DNA of 64,000 bases from an uncultured Chloroflexia bacterium. GTDB taxonomy: Bacteria > Chloroflexota > Anaerolineae > Anaerolineales > E44-bin32. The translations under genes and the position numbers were made by a program. Below the pieces are notes generated by a model. The model did not search any database, was not told where the DNA came from, and saw only the letters and a program-made list of their open reading frames with translations. Positions 21,245 to 37,303 of the stretch are shown one piece after another. The stretch spans positions 1,285,617 to 1,349,616 of the forward strand of contig CAWAND010000010.1 of NCBI GenBank assembly GCA_963783335.1, read 5' to 3'. Each line of letters starts with the position of its first letter. The stretch's first letter is position 1.

Positions 21245-21320
21245 GTCGACGGCCAGACCGTTACCCCGGTACCGATCCCACCCCAGACCAACGAAGAAAG
21301 GCCGGTCCCCAGCTCGACAG

Positions 21321-24300
21321 ATGCTGGAACTTCGCATACTAGGGCAGTTTGACGTCCAACTCGATGGCAAGACCATCGAGATTGCCTCGCGCCCGGCACA
21401 ATCGCTGTTTGCCTACCTGTGTTTCCATCAGACTGTGCAGCACCGTCGGGAGAAGCTGGCCGGTATGCTGTGGCCGGATTCGGATGAATCCAATGCCCGC
21501 AGCAATCTTCGCCACGCCCTGTGGCGTCTGGGAGAGAGCGTTGGCAAGGGCCAATTCTTGGCAGATAAGCTGAGCATCGCGATCAATCCTGATGCAGAAT
21601 TGTGGGTAGATGTGGCAGCATTCGAGGCGGTCACCGACGATGACTCGCTCGAAGCCGTGCTTTCGGCCGTGCAGCTGTACCATGGAGAACTTCTTCCCGG
21701 TTTCTATGATGACTGGGTCGAACTAGAACGTGAAAGACTGCGTGCTGCGTACGATCGCAAAGTTGAGCGCCTGATCGCTCTTCAGCTCGAGGCCGGACGT
21801 TGGGCAGCTGCCATTCAATGGGCGGAACGATGGATTGCCGAGGGCCATGTTCCGGAGTCGGCTTTTCGTTCGCTCATGATTGCCCATCACGCCCTGGGTG
21901 ACGTCGCCAAAGTCGTGAGCACCTATGAGCGCTGCCGGGCGATCCTACGGGAAGACCTGGATGTGGAGCCCTCATCGGAGACGAGGCAACTCTTCCAGGA
22001 GTTGACTCAGCAAGGTGTATCCGGCGATTCGCTTCGGGTCCCCGAGCCAGAGGGGCCATCAAGAGGGTTCGACGCACAGCCGGTCATCAGCGGTGGCTCC
22101 AGGCGGCAAGCGTGGCTGGAGGAAAATGGCTCGGGTGTGTTCGTCGGGCGTGAAAAGCAGCTGGACGAATTAGAGCGCATGCTCAGTGTCAGTCTGCAGG
22201 GGCAAGGTCAGCTGGCCATGATTGTTGGGGAAGCGGGCAGCGGGAAGACGACCTTGGCCACCTCCTTTGCTCGCGAAGTCTTGTCAAAACGGCCCGACAT
22301 GAAGGTGGCGATCGGGCGATGCGACCTTTACACCGGCGCGGGCAATCCCTATGCACCTTTCCAATCCGTGCTCGGAGCGCTTCTAGAGCAAGGCACAGCA
22401 CCCGTCGAGAACGGTGGGGCGAAGAACGGGGATCGGGTCTCTGAGCTATCTCCGACAACGCGTTGGCTCCGGCAACGTTTGATGGCATTCGCGCCCGACC
22501 TCTTGGGCACCATGATCCCTAAGCACTGGTTGAGCACGTCACTGGTGGATAAACCCCCTCAACCTCATTCTTGGGAGGAAGCTGTGGGCCGGATCGTGGT
22601 CTCCGGCGGCGGATCGGGATCGGCGTCCGTGCTGCATCGCAATCGTGTGCTGGAGGCGTATGCTGATGTCCTGCTCGGCTACAGTGCTCAGCGTCCGTTG
22701 TTGATCGTCCTCGATGATCTGCACTGGATCGACCCATCGTCTGCCAACCTGTTGCGATTCCTGGCAAGTGAGATGCAGAATTCGCCGATGCTTCTGGTTG
22801 GTACCTACCGGCCCGACGAGATCGGGCCGAGGCCTGACGGCGCGCCTCATCCCCTTGCAGAAGTCTTGCCGGACTTGAAGCGGGTTTTTGGCGATATGTG
22901 GTTGGACGTCGAGCAGAGCGATCCGGAGGATGCTCGTATCTTTGTTGATCAACTCCTTGAGACGCAGTCCATTGAAGTTGGGCCGGGTTTTCGCCAATCC
23001 CTTGCGGACACCACTCGGGGCCACCCATTCTTCGTTCTTGAATTGATCAAGGATCTGCAGGAAAGAGGAGGTCTGATAGAAAGCGAGGGTGGAACGTGGG
23101 TGGAGGCGGAGGGTCTAGATCTCGGTGTGCTCCCAACGCGAGTGGAGGCGGTAGTAGAGGATCGGGTCGGACGGCTTGATGCCGAGATGCTGGAGGCGGT
23201 AAGCATCGCCAGTGTGCAAGGTGATGATTTCATCGCCGAAGTAGTCGCCGAAATTCAACAAGTAGACCCGGCGGCTTTGGTTCGCCGCCTGACAGACGAG
23301 CTGGGTCGGGAACATCGCTTGGTCGAAGAGGTGGGCATCGAACGCGTGCAGGGGCAGTTGTTGACGCGCTTCGCGTTTCGGCACGTTTTGATCCAGAAGT
23401 ACCTCTATCAACGCCTTGGGAAGGGCGAACGCGCTTACTTGCACGAAGCGACTGGGCGGGGCCTGGAAAGGGTATATGCGGCCAGCGATTTCCCTCCCGC
23501 CAGCCAACTGGCGCGTCACTACGTTGAGGCGGGTCTGGGGAAGGAAGCTGCTGCCTACTTGCAGCTGGCTGGCGAGCAGGCGCTCAAGGTATCGGCATAT
23601 CCCGAGGCGATCGCCCATTTGATGCAGGCACGCCGGCTGTCCCCCGCTGGAACAGCTGAAGAAGCGGGTGCCAATCGTGTGGCCCAGGCTCGGCAGGAGC
23701 GTTTGTTGGGCGAAGCCCACTACGGTCTCGGAGATCTGGGGAAGAGTTCCGCGCACTTGGAGCGGGCGGCAAAGCACCTGGGAAAAGCGGTTCCCCACGG
23801 CACATCACACGTTGGCCTAGGCCTGGCCGGAGAGATACTCGTCCAAGGGTTGCGCCTGGCTTTCGGATCGCACTTTCGCGCCGGCCCGGGGCGAGAGGCA
23901 GAATTGTTTCACGAGGCGGCTGTCACCTACAAGCTGCTGGCAGAGATCTATCTGGTGAGGAATGAGACCTTGCTCACCGTATATGCGGCGGTGCGCGGCC
24001 TGAATCTGGCAGAGAATTCCGGTTCGCACTCCGACCTGGCGCGCGCGTATGCCGACGCGACAGTGATTGCGCCTCTTCTCAGGCTACGTGGGCTGGGGGA
24101 GCGCTATCGCCAACGAGCGCTGCAGCAGGTTGAACTTGATGAAGGGTCGCGAGCCCACGCCTACGTCGACCTCTCCACAAGCATCTATACGCTGGGTGAG
24201 GCCAACTGGGGAGCGGCGCATGCGTCGATAGAAGCGGCCAATCATGCTCACGAACAAGCGGGAGATTGGAACCGGCTCGGCGTCGGCCTGATGCTCATGG

Positions 24301-25064
24301 CCAACTATCTATCCCTGCGCGGCGAGAATGAGGCGAGCCTAGAAACATACTTGCGGTTATCCGCGTTGGCTGAACGCAGTGGCAACACGCAGCACCTGGC
24401 CTGGGGCATCGACGGTCGGGCAAAGTGCCTTATCCGGCGCGGCGAAAAGCGAGATCTTGTGACGGCGGTCGAGCTCCTCGCTCGGTCGGTGGCGATGTTG
24501 AAGGACGAGGGGATGCACCAAGAGGAGGTCGAAGCGCTCGGATTCTTGGCCTTCGCGCAGTGGAGCCTCGGGCGACCAGAGGCTGCCCTATCTGCAGCCG
24601 AAAAGGCGTCATTGATTTTGGAGCGGTCAGCGCCCAACTTCTTTTCACAAGTCGAAGGGTACGCGGGGGTCGTGCGCACCTATCTTCTGGCCTGGGAAGC
24701 GGAAACGGTCTCTGGAGGCAAACCCGGAAGCCACCTTCGTCAGCGCACTGCGCACGCGGTCAACGCTCTCGATCGGCTGGCCCGTATCTTCCCGGTTTGC
24801 GTGCCTCGGGCGACCATCTGGCATGCGAGTTTGGATTGGATGGGCAATCGGCGCGCGAGTGCCCTTCGAGGTTGGCAGAAAGGGCTGAAACTTGCCATTG
24901 CACTAGAGATGCCCTATGAAGAAGCTCTTGCCCATCTGGAACTGGGAAGCCACCTATCCCAAGGGGACGCCGACCGCAGCCGACATCTCAAATTGGCTGA
25001 GGATCTGTTTAAGCGACAGTCAGCTGCCGGTGAACTGGCCCTTGTCCGAAAGGCGAAGGGCTAG
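21321..25064 (+). CDS. Large transcriptional regulator: SARP-type wHTH + BTAD + AAA ATPase + TPR-like helical region
   Basis: LRILGQF..LAGMLWP..ARSNLRHALWRL, LYHGELLPG..W..ERERL, DLDVEPSSET; Walker A GEAGSGKT, Walker B LLIVLDDLHW; helical C-terminus. Confidence 0.88.
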   Translation: MLELRILGQFDVQLDGKTIEIASRPAQSLFAYLCFHQTVQHRREKLAGMLWPDSDESNARSNLRHALWRLGESVGKGQFLADKLSIAINPDAELWVDVAAFEAVTDDDSLEAVLSAVQLYHGELLPGFYDDWVELERERLRAAYDRKVERLIALQLEAGRWAAAIQWAERWIAEGHVPESAFRSLMIAHHALGDVAKVVSTYERCRAILREDLDVEPSSETRQLFQELTQQGVSGDSLRVPEPEGPSRGFDAQPVISGGSRRQAWLEENGSGVFVGREKQLDELERMLSVSLQGQGQLAMIVGEAGSGKTTLATSFAREVLSKRPDMKVAIGRCDLYTGAGNPYAPFQSVLGALLEQGTAPVENGGAKNGDRVSELSPTTRWLRQRLMAFAPDLLGTMIPKHWLSTSLVDKPPQPHSWEEAVGRIVVSGGGSGSASVLHRNRVLEAYADVLLGYSAQRPLLIVLDDLHWIDPSSANLLRFLASEMQNSPMLLVGTYRPDEIGPRPDGAPHPLAEVLPDLKRVFGDMWLDVEQSDPEDARIFVDQLLETQSIEVGPGFRQSLADTTRGHPFFVLELIKDLQERGGLIESEGGTWVEAEGLDLGVLPTRVEAVVEDRVGRLDAEMLEAVSIASVQGDDFIAEVVAEIQQVDPAALVRRLTDELGREHRLVEEVGIERVQGQLLTRFAFRHVLIQKYLYQRLGKGERAYLHEATGRGLERVYAASDFPPASQLARHYVEAGLGKEAAAYLQLAGEQALKVSAYPEAIAHLMQARRLSPAGTAEEAGANRVAQARQERLLGEAHYGLGDLGKSSAHLERAAKHLGKAVPHGTSHVGLGLAGEILVQGLRLAFGSHFRAGPGREAELFHEAAVTYKLLAEIYLVRNETLLTVYAAVRGLNLAENSGSHSDLARAYADATVIAPLLRLRGLGERYRQRALQQVELDEGSRAHAYVDLSTSIYTLGEANWGAAHASIEAANHAHEQAGDWNRLGVGLMLMANYLSLRGENEASLETYLRLSALAERSGNTQHLAWGIDGRAKCLIRRGEKRDLVTAVELLARSVAMLKDEGMHQEEVEALGFLAFAQWSLGRPEAALSAAEKASLILERSAPNFFSQVEGYAGVVRTYLLAWEAETVSGGKPGSHLRQRTAHAVNALDRLARIFPVCVPRATIWHASLDWMGNRRASALRGWQKGLKLAIALEMPYEEALAHLELGSHLSQGDADRSRHLKLAEDLFKRQSAAGELALVRKAKG

Positions 25065-25069
25065 GGGGC

Positions 25070-25867
25070 ATGAGCTTGATGTCAAGGGCTTTGAGGCGAG
25101 CGCGGGCGAAATTGCTCGCACGTTGGTACGCGCGTCTTGCCACGATGCTGGTCACGACGCCCATCGTCTGCTTGAACTACGGTTACGTACCGTTGCGCGA
25201 AGGTCCGACCCTGGCGGAGATCACGCCTCTCCAAGAACCCATGCGGCATTACCTGCAGCTGTACGCGTATGTGGCTGGAGCGATGGAGTTGGCGGGAAAG
25301 GATGTGCTGGAAATCAGCTGTGGCTACGGGGGCGGAGCCGATTTCATCAACACTGGTTGGCGGCCACAAACTTACGTTGGGCTGGATCTGATCGAGGCTC
25401 CACTGCAGGCTGCCACAAGGCGCTTCTCTTCGAATGGCCTCTCGTTCGTGTCAGGGAGGGCCGATTCGGTGGGTTTGGCTTCGGCGGCCTTCGATGCTGT
25501 CATTAGCGTTGAAGCCTCGCACTGCTATCCGAGCATTTCCCGCTTCTTGGATGAGGTCCACCGGCTGCTTCGCCCTGGCGGGAAGTTGGTGCTGGCGGAT
25601 TATCGTCCGGCCTCAGCCATGTTGGAACTCACGCGACAGTTCCCGCAGAGTGGGTTGGAATTGGTCGAGATGGTCGACATCACGGCAAATGTCTTGATGT
25701 CGCTTGAAGAGACACATGCGCAGCGATCCCGATGGATCGCCAACTACGGCCCCCTGTGGCTGCGGCCGTTCATGGGCCAGCTGGCGGGCGTGCGAGGGTC
25801 GGTCGTCTATCGCGGGTTTCGGTCGGGCAGGTTGGTTTACCGGCGGTTCCTGCTGAGCAGGGCCTAG
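25070..25867 (+). CDS. Class I SAM-dependent methyltransferase, resembling mycobacterial phthiotriol/fatty-acid O-methyltransferases
   Basis: LNYGY, LQLY, VLEISCGYGGGA, YVGLDL, VEASHCYP, LRPGG. Confidence 0.82.
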   Translation: MSLMSRALRRARAKLLARWYARLATMLVTTPIVCLNYGYVPLREGPTLAEITPLQEPMRHYLQLYAYVAGAMELAGKDVLEISCGYGGGADFINTGWRPQTYVGLDLIEAPLQAATRRFSSNGLSFVSGRADSVGLASAAFDAVISVEASHCYPSISRFLDEVHRLLRPGGKLVLADYRPASAMLELTRQFPQSGLELVEMVDITANVLMSLEETHAQRSRWIANYGPLWLRPFMGQLAGVRGSVVYRGFRSGRLVYRRFLLSRA

Positions 25868-25876
25868 CCGCCTTGC

Positions 25877-26086
25877 CTAGGCTTCTCCGTCAGGTCGAGG
25901 TGGATACGATTTCGGCGGTGTGCCAGCAGCCGACCAGTCGTAGAACATCGGAATCAGGGAAAGGCTCCGATATGTGTTCGCGCCGCCGCAAGCGGTGCAC
26001 TGCGGCGGCGGGTGGTGACCGGTATTGGCTGCACGAGGATAGAACCTAGAACCGCAGTCCAGGCAAACGTGCTCGTGGATATGCAT
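25877..26086 (-). CDS. Small zinc-ribbon protein (FmdB-like)
   Basis: MHIHEHVCLDCG..F..CTACG; strong GGAGG SD. Confidence 0.7.
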   Translation of the reverse strand: MHIHEHVCLDCGSRFYPRAANTGHHPPPQCTACGGANTYRSLSLIPMFYDWSAAGTPPKSYPPRPDGEA

Positions 26087-26140
26087 CGTCCTCCCTCTCC
26101 CAAAGGTATCTGGATCAGCGAAAGCTTGCTCAGGGCTGGC

Positions 26141-27598
26141 TCAATCATCCCCCTCCGGCGTCGGTGAGCTCTCGCCTTCCGAACCAGAGTCCTTCTTTTC
26201 AATCTTCAGGGCCAAAAGGCTGCCGTCCGAGTATGTGACGGCTTTCACTTGGGCGCGATCGCCGACTTCTGGTGCTCCCTCGATATCGGTCTCTGAATCA
26301 ATGCCGACGGTGCGACCATCGACTACCCATTGGTCAGAGGCGATGGAATCAACCCTGCCGCTGAATTCGATCTCCTCTCCTCGATCATCCCCGGATCCGT
26401 CGCCGCCACTCTCTATGAGGCGGATCCGCTGCGCCTGCAATGTGCCGTCGGCAAGGCGCGTCCCTTGCACTTCGACCGTGTCGCCGATCCCAATCGCCCC
26501 GTCTATCTCCGTGCGGCTGGTGACGGCTACGTTTTCTCCGCTGATGGACCAATTCCCTTGGCCCTTCGATTCCACTTTTCCGGAGAAGGTTATCGTCTCT
26601 GAGCCGTCTGCTTCAGGCGCGGGTGTCTCTTGCTCGGACTCACGGGTTTCGGTGGGAGCAATTTGGGGCTGAGGTGTGTCTGATGGTGTCGCAACCAGCG
26701 GAAGGGCTGTTGCCGCTGGATGGTTTTGGCCTTTTTCCAGCAAGTGGATTGAAGCGACCACAGTCATGCCCGCCTCGTTGTGGATCTGAACGGCGACCTG
26801 GTCGCCTATCCCTATGCCGTTATCTATCTGGGTGTCGGGCGCCAGGCGGACAGCACGCCCCGAGATTGTCCACACGTTCGCGTTCATGGCCTCGACCACG
26901 CCCACGAATTGCTGGCCCGTGCGCTGCACACTGGCGGCCAGAACCCAGCCTGAGGGGTGGGTGTTGCCAGCCACACTCACAAAGTCGCCCGGCCTGAGAT
27001 CAGCCGTGAGCTGCGCCCCAGGGGAGGGTAGGACGAGGACGCCGTCGACGGTGAAGAAGCCTCCGGAGATCGATTCGAGTCGACCTTCAAATTGGACTCG
27101 CGCCACCCGGCCCAAAACCAGGAGCCGCTTGACCTCTTCGACTCGCCTTTTGTCAAACGATGATGCAAGCGAGAGTTGGGAGGATGAACCCAGTGAAAGG
27201 CTGAGCCGGACCTGCTCAACCGCCCGCTTGACGGGATACAGGCTTTCTCCGGGAAGCGATTCGGCAGACGCCACCACCAGGCCGGTGCTGCCGAAGATGA
27301 ACACCAACACCAGGGCAATGCCAATGGCTGCCAGCCGGGGAATGCTTGTCTGGGGACGCCTCGCAGGGGCGCTCCTGCGAAGCTCTGACGCTCGGCCGAG
27401 CAAGCGGGTGCGGCTGCGCAGAGCTCGTTCTCTGGATACGGGCACATCCCAAGGCTTGTGAGCTTCGATGGCGGCCATAAGCAGCGGCCGGAGTTCCGCG
27501 CTCAGTTCGGGGTATCTTGAAAGGCAGGATTCCAGCGACTCGTCCTGAAGCAGAGCAGCCCAGCACCGATCGAAGGCATCTTCAATACGCGTGCTCAT
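26141..27598 (-). CDS. Putative anti-sigma factor: N-terminal helical domain, 1 TM, DUF5667-like motif and four DUF5666-like repeats
   Basis: ATGA-coupled to the ECF sigma; SLPGESLYPVKRAVEQVRL; four FxGxV..W/F..G..VGD.V.V..A..I repeats. Confidence 0.8.
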   Translation of the reverse strand: MSTRIEDAFDRCWAALLQDESLESCLSRYPELSAELRPLLMAAIEAHKPWDVPVSRERALRSRTRLLGRASELRRSAPARRPQTSIPRLAAIGIALVLVFIFGSTGLVVASAESLPGESLYPVKRAVEQVRLSLSLGSSSQLSLASSFDKRRVEEVKRLLVLGRVARVQFEGRLESISGGFFTVDGVLVLPSPGAQLTADLRPGDFVSVAGNTHPSGWVLAASVQRTGQQFVGVVEAMNANVWTISGRAVRLAPDTQIDNGIGIGDQVAVQIHNEAGMTVVASIHLLEKGQNHPAATALPLVATPSDTPQPQIAPTETRESEQETPAPEADGSETITFSGKVESKGQGNWSISGENVAVTSRTEIDGAIGIGDTVEVQGTRLADGTLQAQRIRLIESGGDGSGDDRGEEIEFSGRVDSIASDQWVVDGRTVGIDSETDIEGAPEVGDRAQVKAVTYSDGSLLALKIEKKDSGSEGESSPTPEGDD

Positions 27599-28134
27599 GA
27601 TTGGTCCACGCCCATTTGACGGCGCAACGCTTGAATGGCGCGAAACTGAAGGGCTTTGACTGCGTTGACACGTCTACCCATGAGGGTTGCGGTCTCCTGC
27701 AGGGTGCAACCTGCGCCAAAACGAAGGGCAACCACGTGCTGCTGATCGGGGGTGAGTTTCGCCAAGGCTGCCTGAAGCCCTGCCCTATCTTCTTGGTTGT
27801 CCAAGATTGAAACCGGACCGGGGCTTTCCTCGGCAACTGATTCGGCCAACTCTGCCACATCGTGCCGGTAGATTTTGCGGAAATAGTCATTGACGGCATT
27901 TGAGCACGTGCTCAAGAGCCAGCCCCGCAAGTTGGTGTGAGGGGTTTTGCCCCTACCCACCGCCTCCAACAAGCGTACGAAGACATCGGAAACGATATCT
28001 TCGGCGACATCTGGGCTGGACACACGAAAACGCGCGTACCTGAAGAGCTCGGTGAAGTAGCGATCGTGGACTTCAGCCACGGCCCTAGGATCCATCTGGG
28101 CCAAGCGCTTCAGGTTGATAGATTCGTCGCTCAT
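27595..28134 (-). CDS. ECF sigma-70 factor (BldN-like)
   Basis: AEDIVSDVF, LRGWL, LTPDQQHVVALRF, ETATLMGRRVNAVKALQFRA; ATG at 28134 lies downstream of an extended -10. Confidence 0.9.
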   Translation of the reverse strand: MSDESINLKRLAQMDPRAVAEVHDRYFTELFRYARFRVSSPDVAEDIVSDVFVRLLEAVGRGKTPHTNLRGWLLSTCSNAVNDYFRKIYRHDVAELAESVAEESPGPVSILDNQEDRAGLQAALAKLTPDQQHVVALRFGAGCTLQETATLMGRRVNAVKALQFRAIQALRRQMGVDQS

Positions 28135-28197
28135 GAGCGAGTCCGGCGCGCAACCGATGGCGAGAAAGCAGGGTTTTGAGGCGGCATATTCGAGCGA

Positions 28198-28206
28198 GTA
28201 TAGCAT
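28198..28206 (-). promoter_or_regulatory. Extended -10 element upstream of ECF sigma gene
   Basis: TGCTATACT on the minus strand, about 65 nt before ATG 28134. Confidence 0.45.
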
Positions 28207-28319
28207 GCGGGAATTCATGGGTGAGGTGTGCCATTCCTGGACAGGAAATCGCACACCTCACCTCTACGGTCGAAACCGGACCCATCGACTAGGGGTGCCA
28301 ATCGGGCACCTGGCCAGGC

Positions 28320-29354
28320 CTAGTCGTCGGAAGCAGAGCCACTGCCGTCATGGCCCTCGTCCGAACTTGACTTCGAATCGTCGCCACTCCCTTCATGATG
28401 GTCCTCGGATCGGGTGCCGTCCTCAGCTTCATAGGCTCCATCCGACGACGTGCTGGTTGAGATAGCTGTGCCGGACTTGACTTCGACGCTCTTGGCGCTC
28501 AAGGAGCCGTCGGCGTTCAGGGCCGCCTCGACCTGAACCTGGACTCCCACGTCCAAGGCACCTTCGATCTTCGTGGAGGGGAGCAAGTCGATGCTCTGCC
28601 CGTTGACAGTTATAGAGGTGCTGGAGTAGGCATCAACCGTCCCACTGACCTGCATCTCGATGCCGTCCTGTTCGCTGTCGCCATTCTGATCGCCGCTCTG
28701 CTTGGGCAACTCCCCGGTCGAAGAGAGCTTGATCTCTTGGGCAGCAATGGTGCCGTCAATGGTGACTTTGGCTTGGACCTCTACTGTGTCTCCCAGAATG
28801 ATGGCATCCTTGACCTCGGTCTGGTCGGTGATGGTGACGGTCTTGTCGCCAATCGTCCATGTCCCCGCCGCCATGGCAGTGACCACACCAACAAACTCGT
28901 AATCTCCTGCCTCGGGCGTCTCATCAGGGGACGGGGTGGATGACATCTCTTGCGTGGGTTCTGGTGTCTTGTCCGTGGCGGTGTCGGTCGGCGACTCATC
29001 AGTTTGGGGCTCGGTCGAGGTCTCGATTTCCGTGGCCAGCAGTGTGCCAGCTGCCGAATCCAATGTCAGGTGAACCTTCACCATGTCGCCGACGGCGATA
29101 TCACCCTTAATCTGGGTGGCACCATTGACGTTGAATGAGACCCCCTCCACCGTCCAGCTGTCGCTGCTCATCGCCTGGACGTGACCGCTGAACGACATTT
29201 CCGAGCCGGAGTCGCTGATCTTGACATTATCTGGGAGCGCGGCCATAAGATCTGCAGGGAGCGCACCGCCGCACGCGCTCAGCAGGCTGGCGAGCAGGAT
29301 GCCCACCCCCAGAATCACAAGCGATCGACCTAATTTGCTCATCGCAAAAACCAT
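28320..29354 (-). CDS. Lipoprotein with three DUF5666-like repeats and an acidic Ser/Asp/His tail
   Basis: Signal peptide with LSAC lipobox; three repeats matching those of the anti-sigma. Confidence 0.82.
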   Translation of the reverse strand: MVFAMSKLGRSLVILGVGILLASLLSACGGALPADLMAALPDNVKISDSGSEMSFSGHVQAMSSDSWTVEGVSFNVNGATQIKGDIAVGDMVKVHLTLDSAAGTLLATEIETSTEPQTDESPTDTATDKTPEPTQEMSSTPSPDETPEAGDYEFVGVVTAMAAGTWTIGDKTVTITDQTEVKDAIILGDTVEVQAKVTIDGTIAAQEIKLSSTGELPKQSGDQNGDSEQDGIEMQVSGTVDAYSSTSITVNGQSIDLLPSTKIEGALDVGVQVQVEAALNADGSLSAKSVEVKSGTAISTSTSSDGAYEAEDGTRSEDHHEGSGDDSKSSSDEGHDGSGSASDD

Positions 29355-29400
29355 CCTTCCAGCTACTTGGTACGGCTAAATCATCGCAACTTCATATAGG

Positions 29401-29429
29401 TTGTCGTCAATGGGCAAGCAAAGGTTACG
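29401..29429 (-). promoter_or_regulatory. Candidate ECF-sigma promoter
   Basis: CGTAAC-N17-CGACAA, 46 nt upstream of the lipoprotein ATG. Confidence 0.4.
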
Positions 29430-29495
29430 GCCGATCGCGGAATCGGTCCTTATGGGCTATTCGAGATGGGTAGGGGAAACAGAATGCGCGGCTGC

Positions 29496-30416
29496 TCAGT
29501 CTGGCCGGCGCACCTGGAACTGGTCGAAGTCGCGGGCCACGCTGGTGTTGGGGAAGACCTGGGAGGCTTCGGCCAACACGTCTTTTTCGCGGTAGCGCCG
29601 TGAAATGTGCGTTAGATAGAGCTTCCCGACGCCGGCGTCCCTTGCCAGCCCAGCGGCGTCTTTGGCCGTCAAGTGGCCGAATTGCCTGGCAAGCTGGGTC
29701 TCGTACTCCAGATAAGTAGATTCGATGACCAGTGCATCTGCATCTCGGCAGACCTCGAGAAGATTGTCGGTCCGAGCACAATCGCCAACATGGATCATTT
29801 TGGCGCCGCGTCGTTCGGGGCCAAGCACAGCCTCGGGAGGGATGACTCGCCCATCGGGCAGTCTGGCCTCCCGCCCTTCAACCAGATCCTTGCGGATCGG
29901 GCCCGCAGGGACGCCCAATTCCTCTGCTTTCTCTGCCAGGAACGGACGACGGGACTCCTCGATGAAGGCGTAACCGTAGCAGTCTGGCCCGCGATGTGTC
30001 ACCGGAAACGCTTCCACGCGGACGCCATCTGCCTGATAGAGAAGTCCCGGCTCGACAGGCACCAGGCGGATGTCGAGGGGAGGGCGGGCGCCGCGCAGCA
30101 CCACCCCGAACACGAGGTCGTGGATGCGTTCGAGTGCCCAGCTTCCGGCGAAGATTTCCAGAGTTTCAATGGCCTCCCAGCGGGCGAAGGTTGAGAGCAG
30201 ACCGGCCAATCCGAGGATGTGATCCAAATGGCCGTGAGTGATCAGCACCCGGTTCAGCCTACGGAAGCCGATGCCGGAGCGAAGAATCTGCCGTTGGGTG
30301 CCTTCACCACAGTCGATCAGAAAGCGTTGATCTCGGAAGCTGACCACGTGCGAAGAAAGCCCGCGGTGAACGGACGGGGCAGAAGCCGATGTTCCAAGAA
30401 ATATGAATTCAAACAC
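29496..30416 (-). CDS. rnz: Ribonuclease Z
   Basis: FLGTS, DCGEGTQRQ, THGHLDH, GP-rich flexible arm, THISRRY. Confidence 0.93.
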   Translation of the reverse strand: MFEFIFLGTSASAPSVHRGLSSHVVSFRDQRFLIDCGEGTQRQILRSGIGFRRLNRVLITHGHLDHILGLAGLLSTFARWEAIETLEIFAGSWALERIHDLVFGVVLRGARPPLDIRLVPVEPGLLYQADGVRVEAFPVTHRGPDCYGYAFIEESRRPFLAEKAEELGVPAGPIRKDLVEGREARLPDGRVIPPEAVLGPERRGAKMIHVGDCARTDNLLEVCRDADALVIESTYLEYETQLARQFGHLTAKDAAGLARDAGVGKLYLTHISRRYREKDVLAEASQVFPNTSVARDFDQFQVRRPD

Positions 30417-30503
30417 GGGGCGTCGATCCGTCGTGGGACAAGGTCTGGGCCCGTACCCATGACGGACCCTCAGGGGCCATTGTACCTTAAGGGTCGATCG
30501 AGA

Positions 30504-30962
30504 TCAGAGGAGCTTGGGCTCGATGAATAATGCGGCGGCGCCGGCGGCGATGGAAGACAGCCCCACCAACACTGGAAAGAGTGTGCCGCTGGACAGCCCG
30601 AGACTGAAGCCCCACAGAGCCGAAAGCGCCATGGCTGCGGCGAAGTAGCGCCGTCCGAAGGTTGGACGCCATACCTGTGGGGGAGTCCAAACGGGCTGGA
30701 TCAGAGCAAGCAGGATCACCGCGGCTGAAATCATCAGTAGAGTGAGTCGCAAGATCGGCGGCCAGCCGGACCGGAAGAGGACAAACACCGTGGCCGGCAG
30801 GAAGAGCAGGACTATGTAGCCCGCGCCGAGCAGCAAGGTTTGCCGGGAGCGGCGATGGCCCATCGTTCGAAGCAGCAAACCGAGCACGCCGCTGAAACCA
30901 AGGTACAGCGAAGCCGCACCCAAAACGTAAGCGGTAGGGGATAGGGACGACAGATTTGCCAT
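30504..30962 (-). CDS. Hypothetical membrane protein (~5 TM)
   Basis: Hydrophobic 152-aa ORF co-oriented with its neighbours. Confidence 0.65.
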   Translation of the reverse strand: MANLSSLSPTAYVLGAASLYLGFSGVLGLLLRTMGHRRSRQTLLLGAGYIVLLFLPATVFVLFRSGWPPILRLTLLMISAAVILLALIQPVWTPPQVWRPTFGRRYFAAAMALSALWGFSLGLSSGTLFPVLVGLSSIAAGAAALFIEPKLL

Positions 30963-31009
30963 AGTGGTCGAAAGGGTGCAAGTCGCGTGCCGATGTGCTG
31001 CGGAGAAGG

Positions 31010-31519
31010 TCAGGCGGTGCGCGCGATCGCCGTCAAGGCGAGCACGATCAGGCTGAGGGCCAGGTTAACCCGAGTGAGGCGAGCCTGGCTTTGAACGGTC
31101 CCTTCACGGGGCAAGACTGCGTCAGGACGCTTTGCGCGCAGAAGAAGCGTACGCTCGAGTTTCGGCTGCAGGAACCAGGTCTGATAGGCTGCCGCCGCCA
31201 CCATCAGGGCTATCGAAATGTGTTTGAGCAGGATGGCTTGCGCCCAGCGGCTGCCGATGACCAGAAAGCCCTGATACTGGGGGCTGGCTTCCATCTGAAT
31301 CAACCCAGTGACGACCAAGGCGCCCAGGCTGAGCCAGGCGATCGGCTCGAACCGTCGCCGCATTCCCCGCAAGATGTCTTCCCATAGCTGCGGTTGACGG
31401 CTGTCGGACAGAATGGGATTGAGGACAAAAGCTTGAAAGAAGAGGCCACCGATCCAGGCTACGGTGGCGGCCATATGCACCCAGAAGGCGACCGTCAACA
31501 CCCACGTTGGCGTGGTCAT
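31010..31519 (-). CDS. CopD/DUF4149-like membrane protein
   Basis: HMAATVAWIGG, ALVVTG, LLKH motifs; 4 TM. Confidence 0.75.
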   Translation of the reverse strand: MTTPTWVLTVAFWVHMAATVAWIGGLFFQAFVLNPILSDSRQPQLWEDILRGMRRRFEPIAWLSLGALVVTGLIQMEASPQYQGFLVIGSRWAQAILLKHISIALMVAAAAYQTWFLQPKLERTLLLRAKRPDAVLPREGTVQSQARLTRVNLALSLIVLALTAIARTA

Positions 31520-31543
31520 GGCTGACCGCCCCTGACAGATGGA

Positions 31544-32636
31544 CTAGCCACCGCCATCGGTTGTGGGTGTGGCGCTGGGCTCTGGTGTATCCGTCGGTGA
31601 GCCGCCGCCATCACCGGGGGTTGGCGTATCTGTGGGCGGCTTGGGCTTGGGGCGCTCTGCCGTGGCCGTCTTGCAGGCCCGGTGTGCCTTGGTGGCGGTG
31701 GGATAGAGGGTAGCGTTGTCCCACGCAGCCAGGGATTCGCTGTACATGTTTTCGGCCGCACAAGGGTCGTCGGCGTTGATCAGTTGATCGCCATAGTTTT
31801 GGGCTGAAATAGCGTACTTGATATAGGCATCGTTCTTGAGGTAGGGAGCCACCAGATAGACTTGGGCGAACGCGGCGGCCGCCTTGGCCCAATTCAGCCC
31901 CATATAGCTGTTGGCCTGCAGGTAGAGCTGGGCCCAACTTCGCCAGTTGTCAGCGTCGCGGTCCAGCGGACCGAATTGTTCGGCGCGCGACAGATCAAAG
32001 ATGCCCTGCTCAAGCTGACCTTGGTTGGATATTAAATCAATGCCTCGGTTTCTCAACGCCAGGTACATCAAATCATCACGTTCGACGGCTTTGTAGCCGG
32101 CATCCTTGGATTTCATCAGAACGAGGGTGTCGATAGCTGTCGACCAACCGCCATTCTGGATGGAAGCCTTGGCTTGTTCGAACAGATCCTGAACAGGAGC
32201 CAAGTTGGGAGTCGGCGTCACCTGCGGCGTGGGCTGCGACGTCGGCTGATTGAGGGCAAGCAGCGCCTGGGCCAGGCGATCGGGCGCGCCGGGATAGCTG
32301 GGATCAATCTGGATAACGTATTCGAGCCGTTGTCTGGCAATCTCGTAGCGACCAGCATCCAAGTCTTGGACGCTCAGGTCGAATTGCTCTTTGGCCACCT
32401 GGGTGATGGCGTCTTTTCGGGCGACCTCGCGTTGACGGATCCCAGCAAAGTAGCCGATCGTCCCTGTCGCTACAACGATCACCAAGAAGCCGAGGGCATA
32501 CCATCGGACCATCCGCCACAAGCCGGAGCGACCACTGGCGTCGTTCGAACTCGGTTTCTTCGGGTACGGGAAGCGGGGTGCCGGTGGAGGAGGGCTCCGT
32601 TTCCCCTGTGGATTTGGAGGTAGATTCGGGAGACAT
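31544..32636 (-). CDS. Membrane-anchored helical/TPR-like protein with Thr/Pro linkers (apparent frameshift near 32521)
   Basis: ORF 32304-32636 supplies the N-terminus and ORF 31544-32521 the TM and helical domain; removing one T joins them. TATAAT lies 7 nt before ATG 32636. Confidence 0.72.
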
Positions 32637-32643
32637 GTGGCAG

Positions 32644-32698
32644 ATTATACCTTATGGATTTGACCGGCTTGACGCTCGCTTTAAGGGGGTGGTAAGAT
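32644..32698. promoter_or_regulatory. Divergent promoters between TPR genes
   Basis: Minus-strand TATAAT at 32644-32649; plus-strand TTGACG-N18-TAAGAT (extended TG) at 32669-32698. Confidence 0.55.
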
Positions 32699-32772
32699 GC
32701 CATTCCCGCCGAAACTCTGGTCAAGCATGCACAGCATGCAACAATCTCTTGACCATCCAATGAGCAGGTGCA

Positions 32773-34302
32773 ATGTATCTTAGCGGTAGCAAGTGGAGTA
32801 TGCGTAAGAAGCGGCGACGGCCGCCAAATCCATGGCGTATCCTCGCCCTGGTCGTCCTGATTGGGGGGGCAGTCTACTTTGAACGAGCAATTGTGCCCAG
32901 CGTGCCCCCATTGTTTGTGCCCACGGCCACACCCACCAGAAGTTCGGCTGCCGTGCTCCTCGAGGCGCAGAGTCTGTTCCAAGCCGGGAAGCTCGCGCAA
33001 GCTGAGACAGCGTACGAAGAAGCCATCAGTGTTGATCCCAAGCAGGTGAACAACTACATTGATCTCTCGCGGATCCAGGCGCTTTCCGGTGAGCTGGACA
33101 AGGCAGAAACCAGTGCCCGTGATGCCCTGCTTATCGATTCGAACTCGGCGGCTGCGCAGGCAATGCTGGCCTGGGTGTTGGATCTAAGGGCCAATCAGGC
33201 CGGAACTGCGCAGGATCGGCTTCAGCTTCTCGATCAAGCGCAACAGGCAGTTGATCGTGCGATGAAGCAGAATCCAGGCTCGGCACTCGTGCACGCGATC
33301 AACGCTCAGGTTCTGATCGATCAATACCTCTTCGCCAATCAGCAGGATGCCTATCAGCAAGCCAGCGACGAAGCCAGGAAGGCGGTATCCATAGACCCAA
33401 CCTCCTTGGATGCCCAGTACGCCCTGGGGGTTGTTATGGAGTCCACCGGCAACTATGCTGATGCCTTGGATGCCTATCAAACAGCTTTGCGGGCCAACGG
33501 CAATCTCTCCCTGCTCCACCTCAAGGTGGGAGATATGTATCTGGCGGAGGCGGCCCAGGGCATTGGTGATGCTTCGCCGCAGGACCTGACCGACGCCGCG
33601 ATCAGCAGTTATGTCCACGCTTCTTCCCTTGCGCCCAACGACACCATCCCACTTCGCCGAATCGTTCAGGCTTATTCAAGAACTGGTCAGTATGCCCGGG
33701 CGAGTCAGTACGCGGCGGATGCTGTTCGCCTGGCTCCCGATGATCCCTATTTGCACGGATTGCTGGGACAGATGCTGAGGAAGAACAACGAACTGCAACA
33801 GGCCGTTGTCGAATTGGGCTGGGCAGTGCGCGGGGGGCGGATTCCAGGTGAGTGGACGGTCGACGGCAAATCCGTCCAGATCACTGACAGCAGCCGCCTG
33901 GAAGGGCAGTTTAAGGTCGGGGACCAGGTGCAAATCCAAACCACGACCGATGTCAACGGGGCACTGGTGGCCCAGTCCGTTGTGGCCGTCAATCCAGGCA
34001 CGCCGGTGGTCGATTCTACTGGATCTGCGATCACCGGGGAGATCCAGGCCATTCAGGACCCCGTGGCTATCGAGGGATTGCGTTTGGATCCTGGCGACTC
34101 GCGCTCCGTTGAGCTTTATTACACGTATGCACTGGCCCTCGCCGAAAACGGCCAATGTGATCTCGCCGTCCAGGTTTCGCAGGCGATTCTGTTGGGCATC
34201 CAGAATGATGACACGGCCCGCTTTAATGCCGAGGAGGCATTGCGGACATGCGGTGCCGAAGTCACCCCCACTCCGACACCGGCGGCGACTGCCGCGCCCT
34301 AG
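32773..34302 (+). CDS. Membrane-anchored TPR protein with an inserted DUF5666-like domain
   Basis: Basic N-terminus + TM + PTATPTRS, multiple TPRs (A...Y..A...DP), WTVDG..KVGDQVQI insert, Thr/Pro tail. Confidence 0.85.
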   Translation: MYLSGSKWSMRKKRRRPPNPWRILALVVLIGGAVYFERAIVPSVPPLFVPTATPTRSSAAVLLEAQSLFQAGKLAQAETAYEEAISVDPKQVNNYIDLSRIQALSGELDKAETSARDALLIDSNSAAAQAMLAWVLDLRANQAGTAQDRLQLLDQAQQAVDRAMKQNPGSALVHAINAQVLIDQYLFANQQDAYQQASDEARKAVSIDPTSLDAQYALGVVMESTGNYADALDAYQTALRANGNLSLLHLKVGDMYLAEAAQGIGDASPQDLTDAAISSYVHASSLAPNDTIPLRRIVQAYSRTGQYARASQYAADAVRLAPDDPYLHGLLGQMLRKNNELQQAVVELGWAVRGGRIPGEWTVDGKSVQITDSSRLEGQFKVGDQVQIQTTTDVNGALVAQSVVAVNPGTPVVDSTGSAITGEIQAIQDPVAIEGLRLDPGDSRSVELYYTYALALAENGQCDLAVQVSQAILLGIQNDDTARFNAEEALRTCGAEVTPTPTPAATAAP

Positions 34303-34326: not shown

Positions 34327-35853
34327 ATGAATTTACGCGGCGATCAGCTCAAGCTGGGACCAGATCGAGGCATCAATCTGGGCCGCATTCTGGTCCTCGT
34401 TGCGCTTATCGGGGGCGGCTTGTTTCTGCTCCAGATGCGCGAGTCGGGCCAGGTCAAACCTCTGTTCTTACCCACGCCCACAGCCACTCGCACCGTGAAG
34501 TCCTATGAGGAGGAAGCCACGGCCCGAGTCTCGGCCGGCAATCTCCCGGGCGCCATCGAGGCCTACACGAAAGCGCTCGAGGTCAACCCCGACAATGCCA
34601 CGCTGTGGGCAGAGCTGGCCCGCATTCAAACCTACTACAGTGCGCTCCAGGCCAGCAATGTCGACCGTCTGGCGCGGCTTGCGGAGGCGCGTCAGTCAAT
34701 CGATAAGGCAACGCGGCTGGCGCCCAATGACGGCTTCATTCGGTCCATTCGATCCAGAGTCTATGATTGGTCTGCTTCGGCATACCAGGGAGACGATAAG
34801 GCGCTGTTCGACGCTTACCTTACCGAAGCCGACCAAAGCGCGAGGCAGGCCCGGGAACTTGTCCCCAACAGCGCCTTGGCCCAGGCATACCAAGCCGAGG
34901 TCCAGGTCGATCAAGGCAACTATCTCACGGCCTATGACTCGGCCAAGAGCGCCGTCGATCGGATTGAGAGCGGCACGGCTGCCCAGTCGGGATCAGGTTC
35001 GGCAGATCTGGACGCCATCGATGCCTACTGGGTGTTCGGCATCGTTTCGGAGAACAATGGAGACTATCGGGGGGCGATCGCCACCTATCAGAAAGCTATA
35101 CAGATCAATCCCAATCTAACCTTTCTCTACCTGCGGTTGGGTACGAACTATCGCAAGCTTGCAGGGAACGCCATCAATTTGACAGAACGGCGGAGCCTGG
35201 TGGATCAGTCGCTGTCCGCCTTCGATCGGGCGGCGCGGATCAATGAGCAGAACAATGTACAAGACCCTGTCCCCTATTTGGCCATCGGGCGCACCTACCT
35301 CCAAGAAGGCGAGTTCTTCATTGCTGCCCGGAACGTGGAGCGGGCGGTTCTGTTGGACAAGAGCAATCCGGCGCTGTACGGGTTCTTGGGGGAGGTCTAC
35401 TATCGAGCGCGCAACTACGAAAGCTCACTCCAGGTTCTAAAGTGTTCCGTAGAGGGCTGCGATGCGCACCAGATCGGCGAGTTGCTGTGCAACGGGATTC
35501 AAATCTTGAACTGCGACCTCAACAACAAGACGGTCGATGACTACGGACAGGCAGTACCCGGCCTTCCATTGGATTCTGGAAGCCTGGAGTACTACTACAC
35601 GTATGCATCGGCGCTTGCCTATCTCTCCGGGTCCGCCGGATACGAAAACAACTGCCAAATCGCTGAAGGACTGTTCTCCCAGCTTATGTCGTCTTATGGG
35701 AACGATCCGACCGTGGCCGCCATCGTTGCCGACAATCAGGCCATCTGTGCGTCAGCCGGGACGAGCCCGAGGACTCCAGCTGGCACCGTCGGCCCCGAAA
35801 CATCGCCCACCCCTGAACCAAGTATGCTGGAAACCCCTTCTGCAACGCCTTAA
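34327..35853 (+). CDS. Membrane-anchored TPR protein, paralog of the upstream gene, with a Cys-rich insert
   Basis: TM + PTPTATRT, TPRs, shared GL.LD..S.E.YYTYA.ALA motif; stop codon lies within the IS target duplication. Confidence 0.85.
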   Translation: MNLRGDQLKLGPDRGINLGRILVLVALIGGGLFLLQMRESGQVKPLFLPTPTATRTVKSYEEEATARVSAGNLPGAIEAYTKALEVNPDNATLWAELARIQTYYSALQASNVDRLARLAEARQSIDKATRLAPNDGFIRSIRSRVYDWSASAYQGDDKALFDAYLTEADQSARQARELVPNSALAQAYQAEVQVDQGNYLTAYDSAKSAVDRIESGTAAQSGSGSADLDAIDAYWVFGIVSENNGDYRGAIATYQKAIQINPNLTFLYLRLGTNYRKLAGNAINLTERRSLVDQSLSAFDRAARINEQNNVQDPVPYLAIGRTYLQEGEFFIAARNVERAVLLDKSNPALYGFLGEVYYRARNYESSLQVLKCSVEGCDAHQIGELLCNGIQILNCDLNNKTVDDYGQAVPGLPLDSGSLEYYYTYASALAYLSGSAGYENNCQIAEGLFSQLMSSYGNDPTVAAIVADNQAICASAGTSPRTPAGTVGPETSPTPEPSMLETPSATP

Positions 35854-35856: not shown

Positions 35857-37303
35857 TGTTGTAGGTCCGTGAAAATGTCACCCGAATAGTTCTGAGAAAA
35901 TGTCACCCCTCGGTCTTCTTCGGCTTGCCCTGGATGAGAAACGGCTTGCGCCAGGGGTGATCCGGAGGCGGTTTGTAGGGTTGTTGTGATTTTCTGGCTG
36001 GGCGTTTCCGGCTGGTGGGAGTGATCCTGACCCTGACGGGTTGGGGATCGGCGGGCGTGAACTTGGCGAGAGTAGGCGGACCGGCGAGCAGGGGCTTGAA
36101 GCGGGCAATCGGCTTGCCCTGGTAGGACACCAGGAGCTGGCCGTTGAGCAGCTGGCGGACCTCAACACGGCAGCGGGCGTAGCTGCGCCGAGGAGATCCT
36201 GGCTCGATGGAGAGCCGCTGACCACTGAAAGAAATGGCGTTGTCGTTGGCCACCACGCGCTCATGTTTGAAGCACAGGACATCTTCGGGCTTGAGTCCCG
36301 TTGGCCAGGGTCGATAAGCCGACGGCTCCTCGGCAGGAGGCACGGCAAAGCGGGCGTTGAAGCGCGACAGGAAGCCGGGCAGGACCTGATTAGCCTCTTC
36401 GAGGGACGTGGCCCCAGCCTGGCGGAGTGCCTTGACCAGGCGGTCCTGGAGGGTGCCGAACAGGCGCTCGATGCGACCCTTGGCCTGCGGTGAATGAGCT
36501 TTGATGAGCAGGATATCCAGTTCATCAAGCAAACGGCCAAACTGGCTCCGGGGGAGCTTCCCGGCCAGTTCTTCGGCGATCGTGGCCTTCTTCGGGCTCT
36601 GGAAGATGGTGTGGCGATCGGCGTAGACCGCTTCTGGGAGACCGTGGGTTTGGAGAATGTGCTGCAGGAGCAGGAAGTAGCCAACGGCGTCTTCCTCAGG
36701 ACGGAACACAGCCCACACCACCTCACCGGTGGCGTCGTCGATGGCGGCCAACAGCGACAACTTCGGGCCCCGGTTTTCAAGCCAGGCATGGTCGCTGCCG
36801 TCGATTTGCAGGAGCATGCCGCGGCGGGCCGAACGTGGCCGCTGGCTGCGGTGACGCGGGGAGCGTCGCTTCCGCGGCCCGGGCACGCCAGCTCCCCGAC
36901 GAATGCGCCGTACGCTGGACCGAGACAGGATGATGTCGTGTTCTTCGGCCAGGATCTCCGTCAGGTGGTAGTCGTTGTAGTCGGAGTAGCTGCTCTTGAC
37001 CAGGCCGACCACCTGCTCTCTGAGTCCAGGCGAGAGGCGGCGTGCCGTCGCCCGGCCGCGGTTGCCGTGAACCAGGGCCGACGGACCGTCGCGGCGACAG
37101 GCAGCCAGCAGTCGCCGCATCTGCCTCAACGACAGACCCAGCTTCTCAGCCCCTTCCGCAGCCGTCCAGCGACCTGCCACAACTTCTGTGATCACGAAGA
37201 GTTTTTTCTGTTCTCGAACGGTCAAGGTCACCTCTCTGGTTTTGTCCATGAGGTGACATTTTCTCGGAACCGTTACGGGTGACAAATTCTCAGAACTTTA
37301 GCA
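35857..37303 (-). mobile_element. Complete IS1202-family (ISNCY) insertion sequence, 1447 bp
   Basis: TG..CA termini; each end carries two copies of a GTTCYGAGAAAATGTCACC-like motif in inverted orientation; 17-bp flanking direct repeat. Confidence 0.9.
35903..37249 (-). CDS. DDE transposase (IS1202/ISNCY type)
   Basis: N-terminal HTH, HGNRG, QIDGS.H.W, YADRHTIF, SPQAKGRIERLFGTLQDRL, C-terminal HPWR. Confidence 0.93.
   Translation of the reverse strand: MDKTREVTLTVREQKKLFVITEVVAGRWTAAEGAEKLGLSLRQMRRLLAACRRDGPSALVHGNRGRATARRLSPGLREQVVGLVKSSYSDYNDYHLTEILAEEHDIILSRSSVRRIRRGAGVPGPRKRRSPRHRSQRPRSARRGMLLQIDGSDHAWLENRGPKLSLLAAIDDATGEVVWAVFRPEEDAVGYFLLLQHILQTHGLPEAVYADRHTIFQSPKKATIAEELAGKLPRSQFGRLLDELDILLIKAHSPQAKGRIERLFGTLQDRLVKALRQAGATSLEEANQVLPGFLSRFNARFAVPPAEEPSAYRPWPTGLKPEDVLCFKHERVVANDNAISFSGQRLSIEPGSPRRSYARCRVEVRQLLNGQLLVSYQGKPIARFKPLLAGPPTLAKFTPADPQPVRVRITPTSRKRPARKSQQPYKPPPDHPWRKPFLIQGKPKKTEG

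Follow-up and report, generated by a model that had tools for sequence, protein, structure and literature searches.

Why should a bacterium place the same small domain both in the outward-facing part of an anti-sigma factor and in a lipoprotein encoded beside it, and what might such sharing do? The question is raised by a 64,000-nucleotide stretch of DNA (referred to throughout as the window) from an uncultured Chloroflexia bacterium of the order Anaerolineales (GenBank assembly GCA_963783335.1, contig CAWAND010000010.1, positions 1,285,617 to 1,349,616). Four co-oriented genes occupy positions 25877–29428 of its minus strand and encode, in the order of transcription, a lipoprotein, a sigma factor of the extracytoplasmic function (ECF) type, an anti-sigma factor, and a zinc-ribbon open reading frame (ORF); feature coordinates are collected in Table 1. 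An initial annotation located these genes correctly and proposed an envelope-signaling system, built on one DUF5666-like repeat, to which all four belong together with a tetratricopeptide-repeat (TPR) protein encoded nearby. Much of that interpretation stands, namely the ECF sigma/anti-sigma pair, its DUF5666 sensor, the BldN-like character of the sigma factor, and the linkage of the lipoprotein; the inclusion of the TPR protein and the zinc ribbon is not supported. In our judgment, the lipoprotein, sigma, and anti-sigma genes are reasonably likely to form an autoregulated, BldN-like ECF sigma module. As for the TPR protein and the zinc ribbon, we regard both as neighbors of this trio in synteny rather than as established members.

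The repeat itself belongs to a recognized family. Pfam DUF5666 (PF18914) matches four stretches of the anti-sigma factor (125.7 bits) and three of the lipoprotein (135.7 bits), against a gathering cut-off of 27, and finds one partial copy (profile positions 10–59) at aa 359–403 of the TPR protein with 26.0 bits, just below that cut-off; this last copy scores 31.7 bits in a six-frame scan of the genome and E = 3e-12 with a local hidden Markov model (HMM) built from the repeats. The Pfam matches bear out the four, three, and one copies first reported, with the TPR copy partial and borderline, and the further expectation of a single family holds as well: all eight repeats align over their whole length, at pairwise identities of only 21–46%. 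Across the assembly (3.7 Mb, 89.6% complete), the six-frame scan returned nine DUF5666 matches, eight of which, including all seven over the cut-off, fall in these three genes. The ninth, on contig C8 (24.2 bits), was not recovered by the local HMM, whose search of the assembly returned no fourth DUF5666 gene. Because eight of the nine genomic matches lie in these three genes, the clustering is real and not a product of chance. Recent local duplication was considered as the origin of the shared domain and was rejected, since the repeats are so divergent and are no closer within the genome than across genomes.

The repeat was also examined by structure prediction. In the model of the lipoprotein, three beta domains are predicted with good confidence (predicted local distance difference test, pLDDT, 85–92) and are separated by linkers below 50; these beads fall among OB-fold arrays in Foldseek searches (Unr cold-shock domains, E = 1.2e-7; ribosomal protein S1), and a fold search with the whole anti-sigma model likewise returned OB-fold arrays only. 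When a single bead was compared, the four best structural matches were all entries for Escherichia coli CusF (Z 9.6–10.1, 27–30% identity over 61–70 residues), headed by 2vb2 (Z 10.1, root-mean-square deviation 1.3 Å, 61 aligned residues, 30% identity) with SilB, through its C-terminal domain (Z 8.4), and 8bxj, a silver chaperone (Z 7.5), next in line. Searching PDB sequences with the repeat profile at E up to 10 recovered no CusF chain, only hexapeptide-repeat enzymes at E of at least 0.01, and an ESM Atlas look-up of two lipoprotein beads led, with scores of 0.80 and 0.76, to clusters without names. The eight window repeats contain no conserved His, Met, or Cys column, their invariant positions being two Gly and one Ala, and no conserved His, Met, or Cys was found among the invariant columns of 20 anti-sigma factors and 16 lipoproteins. 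The CusF-type metal site has the ligands His/Met/Met, and in the absence of any such column that site is not kept. The bead as modeled is a CusF-like OB barrel without a CusF-type metal site.

The sigma factor is a member of the ECF group (group 4). It contains regions 2 and 4 only, with all Pfam scores over cut-off (Sigma70_r2, 40.9 bits; Sigma70_r4, 43.0 bits; Sigma70_ECF, 23.2 bits), and scores 88.9 bits on the general ECF model TIGR02937 (cut-off 42.9). Its best NCBIfam model is TIGR02952, the "BldN family", which it matches with 153.9 bits, far above the next models and below the equivalog cut-off of 206.45. On this model, six sigma factors of the genome, the present one included, have scores of 111–156 bits, all short of the cut-off; it is for these two reasons that we assign the protein to a local BldN-like clade and do not call it a BldN equivalog. 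Among solved chains, the best match is 6dxo_A (E = 5.8e-18; the next, 2.3e-8), which is probably BldN from its complex with RsbN, although the paper names accession 6C03. The resemblance to BldN noticed earlier in the C-terminus of the sigma factor is supported in that the quoted stretch aligns to 6dxo_A and TIGR02952 is the best family. The likely start of translation is set at Met42 since the family models align from residue 47 onward. The 41 codons that precede it in the longest ORF overlap a 12-bp hairpin, and the N-termini of relatives are mutually unlike; for the BldN family (ECF121), an N-terminal pro-sequence is described that is removed by proteolysis (PMC7826278).

Directly downstream, with a start codon that overlaps the sigma stop by 4 nt (27595–27598), lies the anti-sigma gene. 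Its product contains one hydrophobic segment (aa 83–101), and the structure model places cytoplasmic helices at aa 3–17, 22–27, 30–51, and 56–76, ahead of a membrane helix at about aa 83–104. Beyond the membrane, DUF5667 (PF18915) matches aa 114–163 with 33.2 bits (cut-off 27) and is modeled as a two-helix hairpin. The motif LPGESLYPVKR, singled out in the initial annotation as recalling RsbN, opens this match, and P116, G117, Y121, and K124 within it are invariant in 20 homologues. All folded parts of the model have pLDDT values of 80–95, the beta domains are separated by low-confidence linkers, and the protein closes with a short acidic tail ending in DD. PF18915 and/or PF18914 is annotated in all 30 other homologue clusters among the matches listed for this protein. 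Compared with PDB chains, the anti-sigma factor gave no anti-sigma match at E up to 1 as a single protein or up to 10 as a 20-sequence profile, with matches confined to the linkers. An ECF pair with a DUF5666-repeat extracytoplasmic sensor emerges, as first proposed, from the Pfam assignments, the gene adjacency, and the model. Given the 4-nt overlap and an adjacency that proves invariable in relatives, the anti-sigma factor probably holds the sigma factor at the membrane by its N-terminal helices.

Relatives of this pair are widespread. DUF5667 occurs in 146 of 201 genomes sampled from the class (97 of 120 genera), matches to the anti-sigma factor in 45 of 61 genomes sampled from the order, and the homologues carry the source names Anaerolineae, Anaerolineales, and Chloroflexota. 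We surveyed up to 20 kb around 40 places matching the N-terminal or DUF5667 part of the anti-sigma factor, mostly the best-scoring ones, and annotated them with local HMMs. A sigma gene stands directly upstream of the anti-sigma gene in 39 of these loci, the fortieth being cut by a contig end. Between one and four DUF5666 beads are carried by 27 of the 40 anti-sigma factors, the remaining 13 having none, and nine of the 27 DUF5666-type loci, drawn from five families of the order, include a separate DUF5666-only gene within 3 kb. That gene lies directly upstream of the sigma gene on the same strand in five (L033, L038, L043, L047, L053) and about 1.5–1.8 kb away in four (L037, L039, L042, L044); the three of the latter with an N-terminus present carry a lipobox, and L044 is cut at the N-terminus. 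In one genome of the window's own family (G222), the whole order of RNase Z, lipoprotein, sigma, anti-sigma, and zinc ribbon is repeated.

The survey also brought up variants of the arrangement. In L037, L039, L042, and L044, a polytopic membrane protein of about 490 aa, with an N-terminal DG(Y/F)YH and no Pfam family, is encoded between the sigma and lipoprotein genes. Its gene lies behind the same ECF-type motif in the first three, L044 being cut before the promoter region, and no homologue of it was found in the window's genome. Sigma pairs with very long anti-sigma factors occur in genomes G203, G224, G209, G252, and G238 (L094–L097, L099, L100, L105); six of these proteins (755–882 aa) have five to six DUF5666 beads and one (692 aa) has two. 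Finally, L039 encodes a 612-aa lipoprotein in which a FecR domain is joined to DUF5666.

The predicted ECF-type promoter stands in the 141-bp spacer upstream of the lipoprotein gene and is the sole match of GTAAC-N15-17-CGWC in the window; no sigma-70-like promoter was found in 25700–29600. The call draws its weight from its place and its recurrence, and not from the single window match. The two boxes, with a 16-nt spacer, occur again at the same position before the lipoprotein operon in L038, L042, L043, L047, and L053. Counted over the nine relative loci with a nearby DUF5666 lipoprotein gene, five have the exact motif within 120 nt upstream and one (L033) has the variant CCATAAC, while in L037 and L039 the motif precedes the first gene of a divergent operon that holds the lipoprotein gene and appears again before the sigma gene; a contig end cuts the region upstream of the lipoprotein operon in L044. 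The background frequency is 35 matches in 633,922 bases, both strands included, which amounts to one match for every 36 kb of strand. The near relative L080 retains the two promoter boxes with a wholly changed spacer sequence. The motif is found in trans as well. Genome G207 has a sigma pair without an adjacent lipoprotein gene and with the motif 45 nt before the sigma ORF, and on another contig (L090) a lipoprotein gene with three beads has the motif about 40 nt ahead of its start; an unlinked three-bead DUF5666 gene in G238 (L093) is also preceded by it. These are two of the six unlinked DUF5666-only genes that could be judged, with the motif within 100 nt.

A site published for BldN reads CGTAAC-N16-CGTTGA (PMC2375139). 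The predicted promoter is like it in the −35 box CGTAAC and in a spacer of 16 or 17 nt, and differs from it in the −10 box after CG. Since the motif before the lipoprotein gene recurs in relatives and resembles the BldN site, the lipoprotein is probably the first product of an autoregulated operon, in which one promoter would probably drive the lipoprotein, sigma, and anti-sigma genes together. A scan of the genome for further regulon members gave 44 matches to a loose form of the motif in 3.7 Mb, and 8 and 11 matches to strict forms, nearly all inside long ORFs; the lipoprotein promoter was the only fully fitting site. On contig C10, outside the window, a small membrane-protein ORF has an intergenic TGTAAC-N16-CGTC about 40 nt ahead of it; this site is similar to the motif that precedes the DUF5666-less sister sigma pairs L054, L060, and L063.

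The lipoprotein resembles the sensor in more than its beads. It has a hydrophobic segment at aa 2–20, a lipobox L-S-A-C by sequence pattern, with Cys28 (all 16 homologues in the alignment have both Ala27 and Cys28), beads joined by P/T/E-rich linkers, and an acidic Ser/Gly/His tail (aa 296–344) that ends in DD. Both this tail and that of the anti-sigma factor contain His, and both end in DD among close relatives. We compared the composition of the C-terminal 40 residues of the two proteins in the window, L033, L037, L038, L042, L043, L044, L047, and L053. The mean cosine is 0.786 within genomes against 0.626 across genomes, a value as high being reached in none of 20,000 permutations; Asn-rich tails are paired with Asn-rich tails, GNDN repeats with GNDN repeats, and Asp/Gly with Asp/Gly. 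Between the lipoprotein and sigma genes, no canonical terminator and no sigma-70 promoter was found. The minus strand of 28125–28325 folds at −79.4 kcal/mol (z = −3.53; none of 200 shuffles folds as well), and the hairpins listed in Table 1 for this stretch might set the ratio of lipoprotein to sigma transcript.

The closest relatives show how the trio behaves as a unit. In one locus (L080, Ga0315556_1000117), collinearity with the window extends from a large BTAD regulator as far as the two TPR paralogues. On the trio's right, protein identity reaches 97% for RNase Z and 95–96% for three proteins of TPR type, CopD and a small membrane protein being about 91% identical; to the left, it is 86% for the BTAD regulator and 83% for a methyltransferase. 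Within the trio it falls to 73% for the anti-sigma factor, 70% for the sigma factor, and 62% for the lipoprotein. DNA identity is 60–73% over window positions 26972–29671 and jumps to 91% at 29672, on the RNase Z side. Such divergence, bounded by so sharp a step, suggests allele replacement or fast evolution. In a second near relative (L081, Ga0307417_10000085), window positions 25866–29499, comprising the zinc ribbon, the trio, and the promoter, are replaced by 532 bp, with both flanks kept. Among near relatives, the trio and the zinc ribbon appear as a clean insertion or deletion of 3.6 kb. The trio is lost and diverges as a unit in near relatives.

Taken together, these parts would fit the following course of events. 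A single promoter, CCGTAAC-N17-CGAC, would probably drive all three genes from a position before the lipoprotein gene. By the model, the anti-sigma factor would expose the DUF5667 hairpin, four OB beads, and the acidic tail outside the membrane, and an envelope cue acting on this ectodomain would inactivate it, most likely by regulated proteolysis, by analogy with RseA, RsiW, and RsiV. The freed sigma factor would then transcribe its own operon, whose first and probably most abundant product, the lipoprotein, would fix three beads of the same family, with an acidic tail to match, on the membrane's outer face. The presence of one module in sensor and product alike is most economically read as meaning that a single envelope component is engaged by both, and we infer that the lipoprotein might buffer, or compete for, what the sensor sees, in the manner of a negative feedback. 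In an elaboration of this scheme that we put forward only tentatively and think unlikely as it stands, the lipid-anchored copy of the sensor's beads and tail would act as a decoy, titrating the ligand or the protease that cleaves the anti-sigma factor and setting the gain of the system from outside. On this reading, the trio may be under diversifying pressure from an agent that targets surface beads, such as a phage or an antagonist, since it is gained, lost, and replaced as a unit and evolves faster than its flanks (62–73% identity, against 90–97% to the right).

Several observations weigh against an autoregulated module of three genes. The single match of the motif in the window is at chance level (expected 0.91; 60 of 100 shuffles contain at least one), and the remaining unlinked DUF5666-only genes have it 1.7 kb upstream (L104) or lack it (L102, L103, and L106, three of the six judged); the promoter and the operon are themselves predictions. 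Repeats from sensor and lipoprotein show no greater mutual likeness than either shows to repeats from other genomes, which gives no hint of matched surfaces, and the matching tails could reflect a genome-wide habit of low complexity. In addition, 18 of the 27 DUF5666-type loci have no separate DUF5666 gene within 3 kb, some three to four of them having too little flank to judge. On this account the lipoprotein must be regarded as optional, and its proposed synteny with the sigma pair is borne out in part, in nine of the 27 loci and five families. It is possible, if rather unlikely in our estimation, that the coupling is transcriptional only, with DUF5666 a generic spacer or wall-binding bead and the lipoprotein an envelope cargo of the regulon without signaling meaning. 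The many loci without a nearby lipoprotein, the 13 of 40 anti-sigma factors without any DUF5666, the generic nature of the OB fold, and the lack of pairing between the two sets of repeats would all suit such a view; the loss and divergence of the trio as a unit, the matching tails, and the fact that the promoter-proximal product is time and again a DUF5666 protein, both in cis and in trans, would not. A closer partnership, in which the lipoprotein, as an accessory regulator, attaches bead to bead to the ectodomain of the anti-sigma factor and shields it from, or exposes it to, the first protease, draws on the operon position upstream of sigma in the window and in five relatives, on the shared domain and tails, and on the fast evolution of both proteins in L080 (62% and 73%) relative to the flanks. 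We nonetheless hold it to be unlikely, for the lipoprotein is absent from most loci and the repeats show no sign of co-variation.

The remaining alternatives concern what the beads bind and which proteins take part. If the beads were CusF-like metal binders, the module might sense or buffer copper or silver in the envelope with the help of His/Asp-rich tails. The run of CusF, SilB, and 8bxj at the head of the structural matches, the His-containing acidic tails, and a CopD-family gene 1.7 kb from the module (45.6 bits in Pfam) invite this idea; the repeats, however, have no conserved His, Met, or Cys column, a sequence search with their profile (E up to 10) turned up no CusF chain, and the CopD-like gene remains where the trio is deleted (L081–L083), so that we judge it very improbable. 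It is scarcely less doubtful, if slightly easier to defend, that the TPR protein is a third member that docks by its inserted bead onto the partner of sensor and lipoprotein. A span of 8.2 kb holds every DUF5666 gene of the genome, and PF18914 is present in 22 of the 120 TPR homologue clusters listed, environmental relatives that all rank in the best 28 and reach down to 45% identity. On the other hand, the spacer upstream of the TPR gene lacks the ECF motif and contains sigma-70-like boxes in both orientations; none of three same-family orthologues covers query residues of about 358–429, where the insert lies, and the tandem paralogue and the G207 orthologue lack the insert by alignment. The TPR orthologue in L081 retains its DUF5666 even with the trio deleted, and in family f65 the 20 kb retrieved around the trio, which there adjoins RNase Z, include no such TPR gene. 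These findings speak against the membership first assigned to the TPR protein. In genome G249, a DUF5666 sits at another site (about aa 150–235; Pfam 36.7 bits) in the second TPR paralogue's orthologue, the only one found in that genome (91% complete). With the local HMM, the domain's later half is matched ahead of its earlier half, an order that makes a circular permutation likely. The domain would then have been recruited twice, separately, to this protein pair, which counts in favor of the idea; curious as they are, the two recruitments do not tie these proteins to the sigma module.

Table 1. Coordinates of features at the DUF5666 locus and in relatives; window positions unless a locus or contig is named
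Feature	Position (strand)	Length	Description
Predicted ECF-type promoter	29403–29428 (−)		CC+GTAAC (−35), 17-nt spacer, CGAC (−10); 48 nt upstream of lipoprotein ATG
Lipoprotein	28320–29354 (−)	344 aa	Signal peptide, lipobox, three DUF5666 OB beads (local HMM limits aa 55–110, 154–208, 237–290), acidic tail; from Pfam, local HMM, model, alignment
Two predicted RNA hairpins	28220–28325 (−)		Between lipoprotein stop and likely sigma start; one perfect 12-bp stem, neither with a T tail
ECF sigma factor	27595–28254 (−)	219 aa (longest ORF)	Likely start Met42 at 28131
Anti-sigma factor	26141–27598 (−)	485 aa	Single-pass: N-terminal helices, membrane helix, DUF5667 hairpin, four DUF5666 beads (local HMM limits aa 170–223, 231–282, 338–392, 412–466), acidic tail
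Zinc-ribbon ORF	25877–26086 (−)	69 aa	FmdB-like; sub-threshold family matches
TPR protein	32773–34302 (+)	509 aa	N-terminally anchored; partial DUF5666 insert aa 358–403 by local HMM (nt 33844–33981)
Tandem TPR paralogue	34327–35853 (+)		Anchored; no DUF5666 insert
BTAD/AAA_16 regulator and class I methyltransferase	21213–25867 (+)	1283 aa (regulator)	Flank the other side of the module
ORF past TPR pair	35903–37285 (−)	460 aa	Probably an insertion-sequence transposase, from sub-threshold matches
Polytopic membrane protein in relatives	L037:11425–12894; L039:1711–3177; L042:4655–6130; L044:10222–11730	~490 aa	No Pfam family
Trio and zinc ribbon, insertion/deletion	25866–29499; L080:3100–6730; L081:5442–5973	3.6 kb (532 bp in L081)	Clean difference between near relatives
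TPR paralogue's orthologue in G249	L078:1501–3165 (contig C53)		DUF5666 at other site
Motif outside window	C10:243248 (+)		TGTAAC-N16-CGTC, intergenic

The genes around the trio complete the picture. Upstream of it on the same strand are genes for RNase Z (NF000801, 263.4 bits; cut-off 252), a four-helix membrane protein without a family, the CopD-family membrane protein, and an anchored TPR-like protein, and two tandem anchored TPR paralogues follow on the plus strand. The zinc ribbon, which had been described as closing the run, scores 24.6 bits on PF09723 (cut-off 34.4) and 23.9 on TIGR02605 (cut-off 31.3). It follows the anti-sigma gene in L033 and L080; in L082, the trio is absent and the zinc-ribbon ORF comes directly after RNase Z. 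Because it keeps this place without the trio, it appears to be a neighbor of RNase Z rather than a member of the module, and it probably lies outside it. On the module's other side, the BTAD/AAA_16 regulator and the methyltransferase remain collinear in both L080 and L081. Just past the TPR pair, an ORF with sub-threshold helix-turn-helix and integrase-core (rve_3) matches is probably the transposase of an insertion sequence.

Little has been written on these families. In the literature searched, DUF5667 was not mentioned, and DUF5666 appeared in no title or abstract and as a table entry in the portions of text looked up; searches for BldN with ECF, Chloroflexi, and anti-sigma returned nothing on this group, with the supplements of the ECF classification (PMC7826278), which may list one, outside their coverage. 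The locus gives a parts list for the DUF5667-type ECF group, consisting of a predicted promoter, an OB-bead sensor, and a regulon product made of the same beads. If the shared module mediates feedback, it would represent a design principle, and a simple one, by which a membrane switch is tuned from the cell's exterior; if it does not, what is left is still a sound annotation of a common and unstudied signaling module of the Chloroflexota.

Among named systems, the nearest is BldN/RsbN of Streptomyces venezuelae (ECF121), to whose family, TIGR02952, the sigma factor is closest, while falling short of the BldN equivalogs by its score and being one of six such sigma factors in its genome. According to two sources, RsbN is, like the anti-sigma factor described here, a single-pass protein with a large ectodomain without known function, its removal is proposed to be triggered by a cue outside the membrane, and the authors speculate that products of the regulon feed back on RsbN from outside (PMC6101532; PMC7826278); a feedback loop at the present locus, if real, would echo that speculation. 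The same sources describe three cytoplasmic helices for RsbN, in contrast to the four predicted here, and say that RsbN homologues are confined to Streptomyces and that ECF121 is mainly actinobacterial (PMC6101532; PMC7826278). The chaplins and rodlins of the BldN regulon have no counterpart at the window locus.

Other systems resemble the locus in design rather than in parentage. The rpoE-rseA-rseB operon of E. coli likewise unites a sigma factor, a single-pass anti-sigma factor, and an extracytoplasmic accessory protein under autoregulation. RseB acts on the outer domain of RseA and governs its exposure to the first protease. Neither the anti-sigma factor nor the accessory protein of the present locus is homologous to these, however; its putative accessory gene comes first, encodes a lipid-anchored product, and shares a domain with the sensor. 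The sigE-cseA-cseB-cseC operon of Streptomyces coelicolor is similar in that a lipoprotein is encoded within an ECF sigma operon. CseA modulates the activity of the sigE operon promoter. Control of sigE is exerted by a two-component system and not by an anti-sigma factor, and CseA is without DUF5666. CusF, the Cu(I)/Ag(I) chaperone of E. coli (2vb2, 3e6z, 2qcp, 1zeq), is comparable as a small extracytoplasmic OB barrel, whereas the window domain occurs in strings of beads within a sensor and a lipoprotein, has no conserved His or Met columns, and gives no match by sequence. The overall design, an ECF operon with an extracytoplasmic accessory protein, is by analogy with rpoE-rseA-rseB or sigE-cseA a familiar one; the new elements are a sensor composed of a DUF5667 hairpin and CusF-like OB beads, and a promoter-proximal product built from the same beads.

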